Assembly: GCA_964406895.1 (NCBI GenBank)
Contig: CAYOTK010000002.1
Location: 6,004 to 70,003, forward strand
Length of the DNA stretch: 64,000 nucleotides
DNA from: an uncultured Candidatus Saccharibacteria bacterium
Lineage (GTDB): Bacteria; Patescibacteriota; Minisyncoccia; Phycocordibacterales; PALSA-1337
Direction of reading: 5' to 3'
The translations under genes were made by a program, and so were the position numbers. Positions 14 to 6,940 of this stretch are shown piece by piece. The notes under the pieces were generated by a model. It made no database searches, was not told the origin of the DNA, and saw only the letters and a list, made by a program, of their open reading frames with translations. Position 1 is the first letter of the stretch. Each line of letters starts with the position of its first letter.

Positions 14-2317
14 ATGAATTTCGAACAAAGGGAAGAAAATAACCTTATGTTACCCACTGAAACCACCACTCAAAGACAGAAGGTTTTTATGATGGCCAGA
101 AAAGAAACCGGAGACCAAAAAATCCTAGAGCAATTTACACCCGAACAGCAAAGAGAAATAGAAAGTAAACAAAGAATTCTCTCATCCCTAGCTTATTTTA
201 TTGGTAAAGATTTTAGAATCCCGGTTGAGCTAAATGAACCTGGGCGGGGTTGGCACTGGGATTTTGAACATAATGTTATTCGGATTGATCCTAAAGATCT
301 TCTTGAAAAACCGATGGATTATCTTCGTTTCGTGATTGCCCATGAAGGTGGTCACCGGCGGATTTCTCGCACAGATTTTATCCCAGTCGAAGAGTGGGAG
401 CAACCGGGTTTTTCGGCTTTGATGAACGCGATTGAAGATCCCCGGGATAATAATTTTGTGGCGGAAAATTATCCAAGATTCAGAAAACAAATGGAATTCG
501 CCTATAATTTAGATGAAGAACTGGTAGCAAAAGCCAAAGCGGAAGCCAAAGGAAAGTTGGGTTATCAGCCTAGGTTTATGCAAGCGAGTTTTGAATATAT
601 AAAACAATGGTTTAACGAAAGACAGAATCGGGAAATGAAAATAAGTGAAGATTTGACCAAAGATGTTAAAGTGGTTTTGAGCAAAACTCTCAAAAGTGCG
701 CAAGACTCTTGGTGGCGATACCCAACTAAAAAAGAAGCAGATGAAAGTGAGAAGCTCATTGCCGATTACGCCAAAGTTTCCTACGAAATCAACCGTGATG
801 AAATTTGGCCGGAGTTTAAAAAGTTGGTTGCAATGGATATGCAGGATCAAAGAAGCCAGGAGTTTCTTAAAAATCAGCAAAAAGCTAGAGGTAAAGAAGG
901 TGGTTCGCCTGGTTTACCACAGGAGTTAAAAGAAAAATTGACTCTTGAAGAACAGAAGGCCTTGGAAGAGGCGCTTGATAAAGCCATTGAAGAAGCCAAA
1001 AAAAGACAGGAAGAAGAAAAGGCCAAAGCGGAAAAAACCAAAGAGGCAACGAGCGAAAAATCAGCTGATGGAGAAGAGGAAACACCCGGTTCATTCAGCG
1101 GAAAAAGTGATGATAAGGACGGAAAATCAGAATCAATGGAATCACAAGGGAAACCCGAAGAACAATCAGTCGATGGACAACCTGTTCCGATTAATCTGGA
1201 TTCATTATCCCCGGAGTTAAAAAATAAAATTAAGGAATATGTTGACTCCCTTCCAGAAGATAAGAAAAAAGAATTGACCGAAAAAGCCAAGAAAGCACTA
1301 AAAGAATTCGAGGACAAACTTAATGAAAAACTTCAAGGCAAGCTGATGGAAAATCCAGAAGAGAAAAAGACTGAAGATCAAAAAGCTCAAGAAACGACAA
1401 TCAGTGCTGGGGAGGCAGTGCGAACCGGCCCAAAAAGGGCGGGGGTTGTCGATATTGCCGGGCTAAAAACTTATAAAGAACGTCTTGAGAGAGAGATAAA
1501 TAAAGACGCCAATTTATATGAGGAAATGAGACGAGAGGTTCTGCTTTTGATTGATAAATTAGAGATGGAGTTGAGACAAATATTTGTTGCGCGCAAAACT
1601 CGGGCCTGGAAAACCGGTTTTGAAACAGGTAAAAGGATAGATATTAAGACCAGGATTCAAGAAAAAGCCCAATCTGTTCCTATAATGGAAAGCCGAGCCT
1701 GGCAGAAAAGAGAAGCGCCTCAAGAAAAAGATTACGCAATTTCTTTGCTGGTGGATTTATCCGGTTCCATGTGGCAAGATGATAAAATTAAGGAGACTTT
1801 TAAAGCGGTTGTTGTCCTTTGTGAAGTTTTGAATCGTCTATCTATTAATTTGGAGATTCTGGGTTTTAATGATCAAATGTACACTTATCAAGCCTTCGGT
1901 GAACAGATATCCAATAAAATCCGCGAATTGATGGGTGGTATGATTAAAGAAGTTGATGATAGTCGTTGCCATAGTTGCGGTAATGAACATAATGAAACTG
2001 ACTTGGGTTGGGCTACAGAAATGGCTTCAAAAAATCTGGCTAAACAAAAAGCCGATAACAAATTCCTTATCACCTTATCAGATGGAAAGCTGGAGGAATC
2101 CTCAAAACATCCTCGCGACAAATATAATTTAGAGGCAGTCATCAAAAAAACCGTTGAGGCTACGGATATAAATATTATCGGTTTGGGTGTTGGCCGGGGA
2201 ACTCAGGGAATGAGTGTCTACTATCCCAAAAGTATCGCCAATGTTCAGGTTTCTGAGATGGCCGAAAAACTTTCTGACCTTATCCGTGATGTAATTGCAG
2301 ATTATGATAAAATCTAA
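14..2317 (+). CDS. vWA-domain protein with N-terminal zincin-like HExxH (HEGGH) domain and K/E-rich coiled-coil linker; partner of downstream MoxR ATPase
   Basis: HEGGH motif (VIAHEGGHRR); long low-complexity K/E-rich segment; C-terminal vWA with intact MIDAS (LLVDLSGSMW ... ITLSDGK). Confidence 0.6.
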   Translation: MNFEQREENNLMLPTETTTQRQKVFMMARKETGDQKILEQFTPEQQREIESKQRILSSLAYFIGKDFRIPVELNEPGRGWHWDFEHNVIRIDPKDLLEKPMDYLRFVIAHEGGHRRISRTDFIPVEEWEQPGFSALMNAIEDPRDNNFVAENYPRFRKQMEFAYNLDEELVAKAKAEAKGKLGYQPRFMQASFEYIKQWFNERQNREMKISEDLTKDVKVVLSKTLKSAQDSWWRYPTKKEADESEKLIADYAKVSYEINRDEIWPEFKKLVAMDMQDQRSQEFLKNQQKARGKEGGSPGLPQELKEKLTLEEQKALEEALDKAIEEAKKRQEEEKAKAEKTKEATSEKSADGEEETPGSFSGKSDDKDGKSESMESQGKPEEQSVDGQPVPINLDSLSPELKNKIKEYVDSLPEDKKKELTEKAKKALKEFEDKLNEKLQGKLMENPEEKKTEDQKAQETTISAGEAVRTGPKRAGVVDIAGLKTYKERLEREINKDANLYEEMRREVLLLIDKLEMELRQIFVARKTRAWKTGFETGKRIDIKTRIQEKAQSVPIMESRAWQKREAPQEKDYAISLLVDLSGSMWQDDKIKETFKAVVVLCEVLNRLSINLEILGFNDQMYTYQAFGEQISNKIRELMGGMIKEVDDSRCHSCGNEHNETDLGWATEMASKNLAKQKADNKFLITLSDGKLEESSKHPRDKYNLEAVIKKTVEATDINIIGLGVGRGTQGMSVYYPKSIANVQVSEMAEKLSDLIRDVIADYDKI

Positions 2318-2329
2318 TATAATCAAAAC

Positions 2330-2758
2330 ATGACAAATGTCTCAAAAATGGCCTTATCGCAATTTTTAGCCAGAACCGAAGCCCAGAAGGATATTTCTTT
2401 AGTCATTGCTCAAGACCAAAAAGAACTCAATGAATTCAGTCTTTTTTTGAAAAATGAAGGATTTCAAGCGGCAGAAAATATTAGAACCCTTATCTCTTAT
2501 TTGAGCGACACTTCTAAGCCCGCCAGATTATATGTTTCGCCTAATAAAGATAACATCAAATCTTTCTATGATTTTCTAGTTCAATATCCAACCGGGCAAG
2601 TGGAGATTTTTGACAGTCAGGAAATGAAATCCAAGGTTTTTCAACCCGACTATAACAATTCTACAGTTGTGTTTCTTGTTTCCAAAAAAGACATCTCCGA
2701 ATTTCAGTCGAATAATTTTTCGCTTCTTCAATATGCCGGGATGACTTTTCAAAATTAA
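2330..2758 (+). CDS. hypothetical protein between vWA and MoxR genes
   Basis: 142-aa ORF tightly packed between two operon partners; no recognisable motif. Confidence 0.3.
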   Translation: MTNVSKMALSQFLARTEAQKDISLVIAQDQKELNEFSLFLKNEGFQAAENIRTLISYLSDTSKPARLYVSPNKDNIKSFYDFLVQYPTGQVEIFDSQEMKSKVFQPDYNNSTVVFLVSKKDISEFQSNNFSLLQYAGMTFQN

Positions 2759-2767
2759 TAAATTATT

Positions 2768-4849
2768 ATGAAAACCACAGAGCAACCCAATCCAGTTTTA
2801 TCAGAGGAAGCAATTGTTAAACCAGTTCAAGAGACCGAAACATCTGTCTCGTATTTAGGAGTGACTCTTGAGAAAGCAGAAAAAAAAGAAGGACGTTTTG
2901 TCCCTAAAAAAGAACAATATAAAGATTATATTAATGAAAAATTTTCTCTTGAGCTCCAGCAAAAGATAGCAATATCTTTTCTGGCCGGTGATCCAGTCCT
3001 GATTGAAGGGGGAACCAGTATTGGAAAGACCACGACAGTCAAAAAAATGTGCGCAGAACTTGGTTGGGAAGTCCATTATGCCAACCTTAACGGAGCGACC
3101 GATGTGCAAGATTTGATGGGTCGATATATTCCTAATCCGTTCAAGCTTGATCGGACGAAAATCTCCGATGAAAAATACGAAAAAATTATCAAAGAATGGA
3201 TAAATCACACCGCCGGAATGGATCCCTCCCTTTTGGAGGGTAAGGAATATATTTTTGCTGATGGAAAAGTGACCAGCGGCTTGCGTCAAGAAGAAGGAAA
3301 AGTAAAAGTAATTATTTTGGATGAGTTTAATGCTTCCGCTCCGAACATCCTTATTCGTTTGCACGAAGTGCTGGATGCCCTGGAACGCGGTGGCGATGTC
3401 ACTTTGTCCGAGGATGCCTCGGAAGTTGTTCCGGTCAGTAAAGGAAATACTAAAATAATTGCCTTAATGAACCCACCAGGCAAAGGCTATTTTGGCCGAG
3501 AACCACTGGATCCGGCCCAGCTTAGACGTTGGGTATATCAGAAAGAAGTGACTGAACTTCCTGGTGAGACTTTTTCATTCAGCACTAAAGCTCTTTTTGG
3601 CATACGGTCTGATATGCAAGAAATACCAGAGGATCTTTATCTTAAACCCCGTCAGTCAATCCTGCCGGCCGAACAACTTCAAGAAATCCCCGGCATTGAA
3701 GATATTTTAGCCAAATACGAAGAATTTCATAAAGCCGTTAAGGAATTGGTGGCCACACGAAAAATTGCCACCGATCAACCTCAGCCATTTACTTACGATG
3801 ATCGAGCGGAACCACGACGAGTTCGGGATTTTGTTTTGCGTTTTTATACGGGTGATCTGAATGAGACTTTCCAAGAGGCCCTGCGTTATTATTACCGGAA
3901 TAAGTTGGAAAGCGATGAGGATAAGAAAAAAATCGGTGAGCTTATTGACCATGTGATGCATGTTCCCAAAGAGGAGACAAAGAGAAAAGGGACGAAAAGA
4001 AAAAGCGATGAGAAAGCTAAAGAAGCTAAATCAGAAAATCCAGGCGAAGCCAAGGAAAAAATAGATGCGGAAGAATTGCTGGGTAAAACCGAAGAAGAAA
4101 TCAAAGTCATGAAAACAGCTTTGAGAAAAAAAAGAAAGGAAATTCTGGGTGAGTCTTCTGACTCCGTCATCTCCGTTGAATATAAAAGAAAGGACGAAAA
4201 AGGCGAAGTTGTCAATGAAATTATTAAAATTGATTTTCAAGAAAAACTAGATTCCGCGGTAGATTTTTACAAAAAGCACGATATAGAACTGCCAACAGAC
4301 TTTATTGAACAAATACAAGATATTTGGCAGAGAAATGTTGATAGTATGAAAGAAGCGATAGAAAAACAGGGTTTTGATGAGATATTGTTTATCCCCAGTG
4401 GCTTGGCCGTGCCGGACTTACATACAAAAATGTCGGCTGGATATGTTGGAACCTACCAGGGCGATTATTTTGAAGCGAACGGTTCCTTTTCTGGCGTTAA
4501 AGAAAAGACAAACGATTCAAGAATTATCTTGATTCACAAGAATAACGCTCAAAATTTAGCCGATCGACCAGAATTAAAAGAAACCCTGGGAAAAACCGCT
4601 GAATCTCTCATCAAGTCCGGAGAAACTCTTACTTTAACTGATTATCTCATCTATCAAAAGAAATATTTTGAAGAAACTGGCAAGCATTTAGATGCGAATG
4701 GTTGGACCTGTCTCCCTGGTTCTAGGTCTGGCTCCTTTGTTGTCTACGCCTACTGGGTCCCGGGTAATGGTCGGCTCGTTGTGAGCGCCTTTGCTTCGGA
4801 CGACTCGACTCCGTGGGTCGGTTGCCGCCCCTCCCGCTGTTTCCAATAA
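2768..4849 (+). CDS. MoxR-like AAA+ ATPase (AAA_5) fused to a ~230-aa C-terminal ligand-binding-like domain whose last ~40 aa form DGR variable repeat VR1
   Basis: Walker A GGTSIGKTTT, Walker B IILDEF, MoxR signature ALMNPPGKGYFGREPLDPAQLRRW; C-terminal half paralogous to CDS 5690..6718; ends ...GCRPSRCFQ. Confidence 0.7.
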   Translation: MKTTEQPNPVLSEEAIVKPVQETETSVSYLGVTLEKAEKKEGRFVPKKEQYKDYINEKFSLELQQKIAISFLAGDPVLIEGGTSIGKTTTVKKMCAELGWEVHYANLNGATDVQDLMGRYIPNPFKLDRTKISDEKYEKIIKEWINHTAGMDPSLLEGKEYIFADGKVTSGLRQEEGKVKVIILDEFNASAPNILIRLHEVLDALERGGDVTLSEDASEVVPVSKGNTKIIALMNPPGKGYFGREPLDPAQLRRWVYQKEVTELPGETFSFSTKALFGIRSDMQEIPEDLYLKPRQSILPAEQLQEIPGIEDILAKYEEFHKAVKELVATRKIATDQPQPFTYDDRAEPRRVRDFVLRFYTGDLNETFQEALRYYYRNKLESDEDKKKIGELIDHVMHVPKEETKRKGTKRKSDEKAKEAKSENPGEAKEKIDAEELLGKTEEEIKVMKTALRKKRKEILGESSDSVISVEYKRKDEKGEVVNEIIKIDFQEKLDSAVDFYKKHDIELPTDFIEQIQDIWQRNVDSMKEAIEKQGFDEILFIPSGLAVPDLHTKMSAGYVGTYQGDYFEANGSFSGVKEKTNDSRIILIHKNNAQNLADRPELKETLGKTAESLIKSGETLTLTDYLIYQKKYFEETGKHLDANGWTCLPGSRSGSFVVYAYWVPGNGRLVVSAFASDDSTPWVGCRPSRCFQ
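4730..4843 (+). repeat. DGR variable repeat VR1 (3' end of MoxR gene)
   Basis: ~115-nt match to the TR at 5118..5235; most mismatches fall on TR adenines; GC-rich 3' segment gccgcccctcccgc shared with TR (IMH-like). Confidence 0.7.
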
Positions 4850-5117
4850 TTAGGTAACTTGTAGCTTGGATTTTTGTATTTATTTTTTCTTTTTATTTTT
4901 AACTTCGGCGAGTATGGTTTGCGAGTTGGGAAGCAGACCTGCCGAAGCGCTCAAAAAAACTGAAGACAACCGCGGTAAGGTAATACCTTGCCATATTGTA
5001 AGGTTTTAAGTCGTGAGAGTGATAAGTTAAGGAAACAGCGGTTTTGGGTTGGGAAAGTTGTCCTAATAAATAGAGTCTGGTTTCCATGGATGTAAGGATA
5101 GCCTCAAGCTAAAAGAG

Positions 5118-5235
5118 GGTCGGCTCCAATGTTGTCTACGCCAACTGGAACCCGAGTGATGGTCAGCTCAATGTGAACGCCAATGCTCCGGACAACTCAA
5201 ATCCGAATATCGGTTGCCGCCCCTCCCGCCGTTTC
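5118..5235 (+). repeat. DGR template repeat (TR), rich in AAC/AAT codons
   Basis: Encodes N V V Y A N W N P S D G Q L N V N A N A P D N S N P N I; aligned VR1 and VR2 positions differ almost only where the TR has A. Confidence 0.7.
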
Positions 5236-5664
5236 TGTTTTAGTAATAGACTGTCCTATTTAAATGGCTTGGATGAATTTGTGAAAGAAGAATTAGGATC
5301 TAGGTTCTATATTCAATACAATGATGATTTTGTGATTTCGGATAATTCTAAATTGCGTTTAAAAAAATATTTGCCACGGATAAGAAAACTCTTGGAAGAA
5401 AAATTAGAACTGAAAATTCCGGCAGAAAAAACGTCTATAAGAAAATTGGAGTGGGAAGTGGATTTTCTAGGTTACATTATTTTGAAAGACGCTGTTTTGC
5501 TCAGAAATAAGACTAAAGGCAAAATTTTTGAGAGGTTGAATGAGAAAAATATCAGTTCTTATTTAGGCTTGTTAAAACATTGCAATTCTTATACTTTAAA
5601 ACAGAAGATCATTTCAAATTATAATAGTCAAATAAAGTCTTATGACTTTGAAGGTGATTTTTAA
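5173..5664 (+). CDS. reverse transcriptase, DGR-type, N-terminally truncated (end of motif 4 through motif 7 and thumb only); GTG start lies inside the TR
   Basis: FSNRLSYLNGLDEFVK (motif 4 tail), RFYIQYNDDFVI (motif 5 YxDD), LELKIPAEKTSIRK (motif 6), VDFLGYII (motif 7); a TAA stop lies in-frame just upstream of the TR, so no motifs 1-3. Confidence 0.6.
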   Translation: MNANAPDNSNPNIGCRPSRRFCFSNRLSYLNGLDEFVKEELGSRFYIQYNDDFVISDNSKLRLKKYLPRIRKLLEEKLELKIPAEKTSIRKLEWEVDFLGYIILKDAVLLRNKTKGKIFERLNEKNISSYLGLLKHCNSYTLKQKIISNYNSQIKSYDFEGDF

Positions 5665-5689
5665 TTTACAGTATGCTAGTATTTACGGT

Positions 5690-6718
5690 ATGAAATTTGA
5701 AGCCTTAAAGCCCAAAGGTGTTACGGAAGAACCTGAAGTTTCAGGACTCGAAGCTTTGTCGGAAGAGGAAAAACAAGAAAAAGTCGCTTTAATGAAAGAA
5801 CTTGAGAATCGTATTAAAGCTGTAGAAGCCGGTCTGGCAGACTTGCAAGATGCTGTTACTGAAGCAGAAAAAAGCAATGATTGGTCAAAGGTTTCGTCAC
5901 TAAAAAATATTTTGAAAAGTAAACTGGCGCTCGCCAAAACCGCTCAAAGAAAATTAGAAGGTCGAGAGGAAGAACTTACTATTTCTGCCGAATATAAGTA
6001 TAAAGATGAGAAAGGGAAGGAAATCGCGGAGACGATAGAATTGGATTTCGAAACAGAAATTTCCTCTCTGATTGATTTATACAAGAGGAATGGCATTGAA
6101 GTCCCCGTTGACTTTAAGGAACAAATGCAAAGTCTTTGGGAGAAAAATGCCGATGCTATGACGGAAGCCGTTGCCGAGAAAGGATTTGATCAGGTTTTGT
6201 TTATTCCGGAAAATCTGCCCAAACTCAAAGAGTTAGAGGTTAAAATGACCGCGGGTTATGAAAAAGAAAAAGGCAATAAGACTTATTGGTATATAAGTGC
6301 TGATGATATAAAAGAAACAGCGACAAGGGGAGCCAGAATCATTTTGGTTCACAAGGCTCCGGATTTGACCGCTCACCCAGAACTAAAGAAAACACTGAGC
6401 AAGGAATTCGGTGGAGAAAAAGAAAATGGGAAAGATAATAAAGCGGAGGATTTTATAAAAGACGGCGAATCTTTGACTTTGTCTGAATATTTGATTTTAC
6501 AGAGAGATGTTTTTGAGAAAACTGGTGTTCATCTGGATAGCAAACTAACACCTGATGGCGATTATATTTTCTGGACATGGCTTCCCGGTTCTCAAGTCGG
6601 CTCCTATGTTATCGACGCCGGCTGGAGCCCGGGTGGTGGTCGGCTCGGTGTGAGTGCCCGTGCTCCGGACTACTCGCAGCCGGCTATCGGTCGCCGCCCC
6701 TCCCGCTGTTTCCAATAA
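5690..6718 (+). CDS. stand-alone paralog of the MoxR C-terminal domain carrying DGR variable repeat VR2 (ORF track start 5642; a later Met nearer 5690 is more likely)
   Basis: Aligns over ~230 aa with the C-terminal half of CDS 2768..4849 (YKRKDEKGE.../YKYKDEKGKE..., LTLTDYLI/LTLSEYLI); ends ...GRRPSRCFQ. Confidence 0.6.
   Translation: MKFEALKPKGVTEEPEVSGLEALSEEEKQEKVALMKELENRIKAVEAGLADLQDAVTEAEKSNDWSKVSSLKNILKSKLALAKTAQRKLEGREEELTISAEYKYKDEKGKEIAETIELDFETEISSLIDLYKRNGIEVPVDFKEQMQSLWEKNADAMTEAVAEKGFDQVLFIPENLPKLKELEVKMTAGYEKEKGNKTYWYISADDIKETATRGARIILVHKAPDLTAHPELKKTLSKEFGGEKENGKDNKAEDFIKDGESLTLSEYLILQRDVFEKTGVHLDSKLTPDGDYIFWTWLPGSQVGSYVIDAGWSPGGGRLGVSARAPDYSQPAIGRRPSRCFQ
6595..6712 (+). repeat. 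DGR variable repeat VR2
   Basis: ~115-nt match to the TR with differences concentrated at TR adenines; the same ~50-nt 3' flank (ccaataattagRtaacttgtag..ttggatttt.gtatttatttt) follows both VR1 and VR2. Confidence 0.65.
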
Positions 6719-6940
6719 TTAGATAACTTGTAGTTTGGATTTTGTATTTATTTTCCTTTTTTTATCTTCGATTTTTTTAAAATACATCAGATGTGGTGGT
6801 TGCAAAACTCACAAGTGAATAAAAAGTCACCATATGTTTTATTTTAGAAAAGAATATAATATTTGCGTAAAGTTAAATAATAAAAAATGAAATATTTTGT
6901 TGGATATCTAGCGTCTGAAAAATTATGATAGTATTAATTC

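Follow-up and report, generated by a model that had tools for sequence, protein, structure and literature searches.

In DGRs of the BPP-1 type, the RNA flanking the template repeat (TR) is needed for cis-primed cDNA synthesis by RT-Avd (PMC6182149; bioRxiv 10.1101/2023.10.23.563531). RNA both up- and downstream of the TR is required for cis-primed cDNA synthesis in the prototype DGR, and an Avd-binding stem-loop just 3′ of the TR has been predicted widely, CPR bacteria included (bioRxiv 10.1101/2023.10.23.563531). Cellular DGRs restricted to CPR bacteria form a known clade, named 'DGR clade 2' (Roux et al., 2021; PMC8144416). Schillinger et al. (2012; DiGReF) reported truncated RT genes in elements which keep the adenine signature, and interpreted these as recent inactivations; multi-target DGRs and remote variable regions (VRs) are known as well (PMC3521204).

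The locus described here covers positions 2768–6718 of a 64-kb stretch of DNA (the window; 64,000 nt) and is a DGR with two targets. Like clade 2 DGRs of Patescibacteria/CPR, it shows adenine-specific TR/VR mismatches and has its VRs at the 3′ ends of the targets, and the C-terminal half of its RT is homologous to full-length RTs with a GNxTSQ motif (E-values down to 1e-34); the relatives found were nearly all Patescibacteria MAGs. Unlike clade 2 elements, however, it is short of about 212 N-terminal RT residues and avd is missing, and for these reasons the element should be unable to act alone. Components and logic are the same as in the DGR of Bordetella phage BPP-1 (mtd-avd-TR-Sp-brt), but in the subclade of the window avd is located downstream of the TR on the opposite strand, which makes the RNA 3′ of the TR antisense avd, and a structured RNA of about 225 nt is found upstream of the TR. 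The DiGReF cases are similar in that the RT was shortened by a mutation event with the TR/VR adenine signature still visible. Those cases are transposon insertions, nonsense mutations and frameshifts, whereas the window carries what appears to be a microhomology deletion of about 0.94 kb, which also removed avd and set the RT remnant in frame with the TR, and for which both parents are known. The features of the locus are as follows.

2768–4849, plus strand: DGR target gene 1, MoxR-like AAA_5 ATPase of 693 aa with a C-terminal variable region
4730–4843, plus strand: VR1, 114 nt aligned to the TR, at the 3′ end of ORF 2768–4849
4900–5125, plus strand: structured non-coding RNA (predicted), about 225 nt, between VR1 and TR
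5122–5235, plus strand: template repeat (TR), a repeat of VR1 and VR2 with A-biased mismatches
5173–5664, plus strand: 163-aa ORF, consisting of a TR-encoded N-terminus, an antisense-avd remnant and an RT remnant
5236–5263, minus strand: avd 3′ remnant with 3′ flank, stop codon and the last 1–2 codons
5256–5258, minus strand: stop codon of the avd remnant (CTA on the plus strand)
5257–5263, no strand: deletion junction, 7-nt microhomology TATTTAA present in both parents, one copy in the window
5257–5664, plus strand: RT remnant with the end of motif 4 (YLNGLD), motif 5, motifs 6–7 and thumb
5317–5328, plus strand: motif 5, YNDD
5642–6718, plus strand: DGR target gene 2, 358 aa, with a C-terminal module common to target 1
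6599–6712, plus strand: VR2, at the 3′ end of ORF 5642–6718

The AAA_5 domain of target 1 was detected with Pfam (E-value of 2.6e-10), and the name 'MoxR-like ATPase' is that of one JGI cluster member of this protein. No Pfam domain was found over the C-terminal VR region of the targets. Compared with the sister population introduced below and with the VRs left out, dN/dS is 0.19 for target 1 and 0.31 for target 2. Both VRs are placed C-terminally, with 6 nt between the VR end and the stop codon. The near-repeat of TR and VRs bears the adenine signature of DGRs: among the 22 mismatches of VR1 to the TR, 18 concern TR adenines and 4 concern other positions (5158, 5188, 5208 and the IMH-type position 5230), and among the 23 mismatches of VR2 the numbers are 17 and 6 (the latter at 5134, 5137, 5178, 5202, 5215 and again 5230), in a TR with 25 adenines among its 114 bases (22%). 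A GC-rich VR 3′ end of the IMH type is present, as both VRs end in CCCTCCCGCTGTTTC and the TR ends in CCCTCCCGCCGTTTC; the single C/T difference, at 5230, is identical in the window and the sister loci.

Some further observations concern the surroundings of the targets. Target 1 is located in an apparent operon (14–4849) together with a CobT-like VWA protein (14–2317) and, directly upstream of the MoxR-like AAA_5 ATPase, a 142-aa ORF (2330–2758); a DGR is paired with a VWA protein in the related loci L084 and L085, too. Approximately 55 nt 3′ of each target stop codon (4844–4899 and 6713–6768; …TAATTAGGTAACTTGTAGCTTGGATTTTTGTATTTATTTT…) are conserved between both window targets, and the same sequence also follows the VR ends in L085, L086 and L001. 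It could be a homing-site element, a terminator or a promoter.

The first-pass annotation had described an RT reading frame which begins inside the TR and lacks motifs 1–3, and this description was confirmed in most respects. An in-frame TAA is found ten bases upstream of the TR (5110–5112), the first start codon after it is the GTG at 5173 within the TR, and the frame is open from there to 5664, giving the 163-aa ORF, whose predicted N-terminus is TR-encoded. The gene call of NCBI and Logan is shorter, with a predicted product of 131 aa starting from TTG at 5269 (P0001). The absence of motifs 1–3 agrees with the Pfam result, in which only positions 134–205 of the 205 positions of RVT_1 were matched (ORF residues 30–103, 29.7 bits against a cut-off of 29.6), and the upstream spacer, said to be full of stops, has them in all three forward frames between 4850 and 5121. 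One detail has to be corrected. The frame had been read as passing from the TR into the tail of motif 4 and then motifs 5–7; the RT content stands, but 'FSNRLS' (5236–5256) is no motif 4 tail, because the same bases in the sister contig L112 adjoin an intact minus-strand avd, of which they form the 3′ flank and the stop codon. The RT-derived sequence begins at 5257 (Y-L-N-G-L-D).

The RT remnant represents about the last 36–40% of a DGR RT of approximately 330–340 aa. When nine full-length RTs were used as tblastn queries, only their residues from about 207–226 to the end aligned, to window positions 5257–5625 (E-values to 3e-26), and with ten longer relatives the C-terminal third alone aligned, again to 5257–5625. 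The nine full-length queries gave no other RT match in the 64 kb at E ≤ 10, and avd is absent from the 64 kb, since no tblastn match better than E = 0.5 was obtained with two Avd queries; an accessory avd (bAvd, PF22296) beside TR and RT is, therefore, lacking in the window. Nor are all palm motifs of a DGR-clade RT present, as the deletion took the GNxTSQ motif together with all RT sequence 5′ of it; a motif of the GNxTSQ type is kept in the sister L001 (MHLGNITSQ) and in relatives. The retained half of the RT is clearly of DGR-RT ancestry. The remnant (408 nt) is without internal stop codon, and its dN/dS against L001 is 0.15, which is no higher than in neighbouring genes (0.19–0.31).

The sister population was reached via the protein cluster of target 1 (contigs from JGI 3300045395, 3300045384 and 3300045398, and from Logan SRR23702483 and SRR23702481); L001 and L002 come from the same population. 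Between window and sister, dS ranges from 0.14 to 0.20 in five genes (about 0.17). The contigs L112 and L114 agree with the window over VR1, spacer and TR and over a further 28 nt, bar scattered substitutions. These 28 nt read TGTTTTAGTAA[T/G]AGAC[T/C]GTCCTATTTAA, with two bases differing between the window and L112/L114. Past this point, L112 and L114 run on as GATTTCTAGTATATTTTATCCAGCC; read as its reverse complement, this sequence encodes the avd C-terminus GWIKYTRNLK*. The avd of L114 gives a match to PF22296 (bAvd), if a weak one. The window continues past the switch point as ATGGCTTGGATGAA, and this is the RT sequence of L001 (AATATT-TATTTAA-ATGGCTTGGACGAA). From 5257 to the RT stop codon, L001 and the window are 94.6% identical at the nucleotide level, with no homology upstream, where L001 has RT motif 3 (ILKCDVRKYF) and the motif 3–4 linker, both missing in the window.

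The ancestral layout, both parent sequences and the microhomology are directly visible. At the switch point, the left parent L112 reads GTCC-TATTTAA-GATTTC and the right parent L001 reads AATATT-TATTTAA-ATGGC, and the window junction is GTCC-TATTTAA-ATGGC. Since TATTTAA is present at this point in both parents, the deletion was probably microhomology-mediated. In eight intact spacer-bearing loci, 941–964 nt separate the TR end from the motif-4 codons (F-A-N-I-Y-L); by analogy with these loci, the two TATTTAA copies would have been 931–954 nt apart and about 0.93–0.95 kb would have been removed, comprising all of avd and roughly RT codons 1–212. Along with the RT N-terminus, the deletion thus took the entire minus-strand avd, which is sited between TR and RT in intact relatives. 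Of the explanations offered initially, a deletion fusing the TR to the RT is corroborated by the recovery of both junction parents from the sister, with a 7-nt microhomology at the breakpoint. A long direct repeat driving recurrent deletion was also considered and rejected: in intact single loci, the longest exact match between TR flank and motif 4 is just 6–8 nt, and as such matches are not clearly above those of random windows, only short microhomology is supported.

Two observations on the sister are added here. Its RT has an in-frame TAG in the motif 3–4 linker (L001:173–175 and L002; …NSFK*ESIALGDCLAEPVGMHLGNITSQ), and its VRs are nonetheless in step with its TR (0–1 non-A mismatches). 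The TAG could be a very recent nonsense mutation, be subject to readthrough or reflect a strain mixture; given this codon, the RT may have been failing already ahead of the deletion. Further, between the TRs of the window and the sister (L112:10355–10468) there are 10 differences in 114 positions (8.8%), 7 of which are at non-A sites, against 12 in 268 positions (4.5%) for the adjoining structured spacer, which indicates that the TR evolves faster than the neighbouring RNA.

The spacer of the metagenome contig L084 aligns well with window positions 4900–5120, and a pattern derived from it recovered 18 more metagenome loci. In at least 13 spacer-bearing loci a common layout is seen: a target gene ending in a VR, the spacer RNA, a TR of about 115–120 nt, a minus-strand avd and a full-length RT. 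The avd of intact loci encodes 123 aa and its stop codon abuts the TR end; the RT is on the plus strand, overlaps the 5′ end of avd with its own 5′ end, aligns to residues 15–334 of the reference, and is followed by one or more further targets. In most of the 80 genomic relatives, the RT is encoded by a single open frame of 330–360 aa, with about 205–225 residues upstream of the point where homology to the window starts. A family of naturally short or split RTs was, therefore, rejected, even though all 119 protein matches were ≤250 aa; the restriction to short matches is a search bias caused by candidate selection and short contigs.

L084 itself has almost the same TR-RT fusion as the window, and its RT C-terminal half is 52% identical to that of the window. 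A conserved, functional TR-RT fusion shared with L084 was rejected, as the 94%-identical sister of the window keeps a full RT and avd. By eye, the RT half of L084 is more like the full-length proteins P0007–P0009 than like that of the window; with the sister intact, this points to independent deletions in the window and in L084. In L084 (300–500), avd and the RT N-terminus have been lost with end points nearly those of the window. The left side of its junction ACTGCGTTTCGCGAATATTTATCTCAAT corresponds to an avd 3′ end (compare L102, ATACTGCGTTTCGCGAATATC) and the right side to RT motif-4 codons (compare L099, TTCGCGAATATTTATCTCGAT), and the two readings coincide in the crossover overlap TTCGCGAATATTT, which gives the avd 3′ end when reverse-complemented and the RT codons F-A-N-I when read directly. 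From these comparisons with relatives, L084 appears to carry a deletion scar.

A different deletion, which removed the 5′ ends of both genes, is present in the Hainich H43 groundwater contigs L088 (1969–3529), L105 and L108; the L088-type allele retains avd residues 49–123 and the RT from residue ~154. Loss of avd and RT by deletion looks common in the subclade, with the proviso that the sampling favours deletion cases, as loci were retrieved via RT C-terminal homology and the spacer. Downstream on the same contig, L088 contains a second complete avd (2930–3289, minus strand) and the start of a second RT (3348–3527); it thus has two adjacent DGR cores, of which one is broken. Other damage was seen as well: in L085 (3860–4785) the RT has a frameshift near residue 85, the spacer RNA is absent and the TR starts 33 nt after a VR; in L102 (2346–3286) the RT frameshift is near residue 175; and in L012 (5899–6366) the RT is present from residue ~179 to its end only, with no N-terminal half in the 5.9 kb upstream.

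Simple-repeat tracts, either (GA)10–14 or G10–12, were noticed in the motif 3–4 linker of 7 of 91 related RTs, where the background density would predict about 1. In five of the seven (L010:5900–5920, L061:5910–5935, L071:972–1000, L040:5937–5948 and L058:5920–5929) the tract is the exact site of a reading-frame change; the loci L005 and L011 are in frame. The tracts could be due to slipped-strand on/off switching of the RT, or to slippage in sequencing or assembly. Among the top-ranked results of a literature search, none linked DGR RTs to SSR phase variation. If biological, the tracts may amount to on/off phase switching of a hypermutation enzyme, possibly of more value than the RT remnant.

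The spacer between VR1 and TR is best described as a structured RNA. RNAalifold, applied to 15 loci, predicted 48 base pairs, 22 of which have compensatory changes; 95.7% of the cells are paired, compared to 36–47% with partners slid, and the observed values were reached by none of 500 shuffles. A covariance model (R1) scores the window copy with 204.5 bits and the copy of the sister L112, which is outside the training set, with 206.1 bits. Copies are located at L112:10133–10358, L084:86–323 and L088:1640–1854 and in L094–L111. With the same model the RNA was found in this subclade only; neither L085 nor any of 80 other CPR DGR loci gave a copy. No Rfam family matched the spacer RNA; the region 4700–5700 gave two chance-level matches (E-values of 0.19 and 0.33). 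The spacer probably forms the 5′ part of the DGR template RNA. An origin as degraded RT or avd coding sequence was rejected, since tblastn gave zero matches and the region is a structured RNA. A covariation-supported RNA upstream of the TR which is absent from Rfam could matter more than the truncated RT.

Taken together, we consider it very likely that this DGR lost its enzymatic core in a single deletion and is an ordinary decaying element. The ancestral order would have started with a target and its VR, followed by a structured RNA of about 225 nt and the TR; avd, encoded on the opposite strand, would have ended directly at the TR, and a divergently oriented full-length RT and a further target would have come next. 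Slippage or microhomology-mediated end-joining would then have occurred between two TATTTAA copies. The first of these is 22 nt past the TR, in the last codons and stop codon of avd, and the second is within motif 4 of the RT, at the codons Y-L-N. The RT would have lost its fingers, motifs 1–3 including the catalytic Asp of motif 3, and the (I/L)GxxxSQ signature of motif 4. The leftover RT codons presumably came to be in frame with the TR by a one-in-three chance, which would have created the 163-aa ORF starting from GTG. The remnant should be unable to polymerise, and with Avd and the RNA downstream of the TR also lost, the element would no longer be autonomous, leaving both VRs frozen and drifting.

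The element appears to be inactive at present. Non-A mismatches and derived substitutions are few in number, but they point in the same direction: without the IMH-type position, the VRs of the window have 3 and 5 non-A mismatches to their TR, compared to 0 and 1 in the sister against its own TR, and of 8 amino-acid differences between the remnant and L001, 4 affect positions at which 15 outgroups show no variation or only chemically similar residues (R to Q immediately before YNDD; L/I/V to S; F/Y to L; in GVDFLG, G to E), with the derived state always in the window. Of the RNA 3′ of the TR, only 28 nt survive in the window. The window VRs show 10–12 non-A mismatches to the sister TR, but only 4–6 to their own TR; as they share the non-A states of the window TR, homing still worked on the window branch after the two TRs had diverged, and was lost later. 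On the other hand, spacer RNA and TR are undamaged in the window, and the spacer scores as in intact loci. A dN/dS of 0.15 without internal stop codon implies either that the deletion is recent relative to the divergence or that the remnant is partly constrained; low dN/dS, open frame and intact spacer fit a deletion which is young compared to the separation of the window lineage from its sister. One possible constraint is that the remnant contains signals for the expression of target 2; the ORF of this target overlaps the 3′ end of the remnant. The population could also contain an intact allele. Both VRs are traversed unbroken in two assemblies, which is a further indirect sign of inactivity. 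A decaying DGR had been among the initial suggestions, and the deletion, the loss of avd, the excess of non-A mismatches and the derived RT substitutions all speak for it.

Alternatively, the cassette of structured RNA, TR and two VRs may still be in use, with a second complete DGR elsewhere in the genome providing RT and Avd in trans. In favour of this, the score of the spacer RNA matches that of intact loci (204.5 versus 206.1 bits), the TR retains its 25 adenines, both target ORFs are intact and under purifying selection, and L088 pairs a truncated avd and RT at the TR with a second complete avd and the start of an RT downstream; DGRs with several targets and remote VRs have precedents as well (PMC3521204). 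However, a second RT or avd was not found in the 64 kb, VR1 and VR2 have 3 and 5 private non-A mismatches (versus 0 and 1 in the sister), the sequence 3′ of the TR, where the prototype has its priming and Avd-binding RNA, is deleted bar 28 nt, and two assemblies cross both VRs without breaks. We therefore regard supply in trans as unlikely. It is marginally less likely still that the cassette is an orphan serviced in trans and that deletions from avd to motif 4 are a recurrent route to RT-less satellite cassettes in CPR bacteria; if this were true, the deletions of the window and L084 would have turned autonomous DGRs into RT-less satellites, arising independently.

Two other explanations are very improbable. 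In the first-pass annotation it had been proposed that the N-terminal half of the RT is encoded elsewhere, in which case C-terminal palm and thumb would form a working subunit of a split RT. An open remnant ORF with a pairwise dN/dS of 0.15 and a first protein search which gave only relatives ≤250 aa would agree with this, but the list of short relatives results from search bias, most of the 80 genomic relatives having one frame of 330–360 aa, and the RT is one contiguous gene in the sister lineage. The junction, moreover, is a deletion scar, the substitutions of the window affect invariant residues beside the catalytic YNDD and in GVDFLG, and the recommended search for an N-terminal RT fragment or a second complete RT found neither within the 64 kb (tblastn). 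About equally improbable is an artefact or chimera of assembly, the real genome having an intact avd-RT at this place. Metagenome assemblies do get broken or mis-joined by DGR repeats and strain mixtures; however, L003, an independent Logan assembly (SRR12487045), shows 100% identity with the window along 7,707 nt, a stretch which takes in the junction as well as both VRs, the shared repeat of 7 nt is too short to collapse a de Bruijn/k-mer assembly, and both sides of the junction belong to the same lineage, with window-specific substitutions on each. The preferred reading, hence, remains loss of the enzymatic core in a single deletion.

The finding is a decayed DGR resolved to the base, of a kind already known and with a mechanism which is not new, and the value of the RT remnant itself is mainly one of annotation: the ORF should be annotated as the RT pseudogene remnant of a disabled DGR, neither as an RT nor as a hypothetical protein, and the two targets should be treated as frozen variants. 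Sister and window form a natural before-and-after pair, the sister with the intact layout and VRs in step, the window with the deletion and VRs starting to drift. This pairing provides a rough clock for DGR decay in CPR bacteria.
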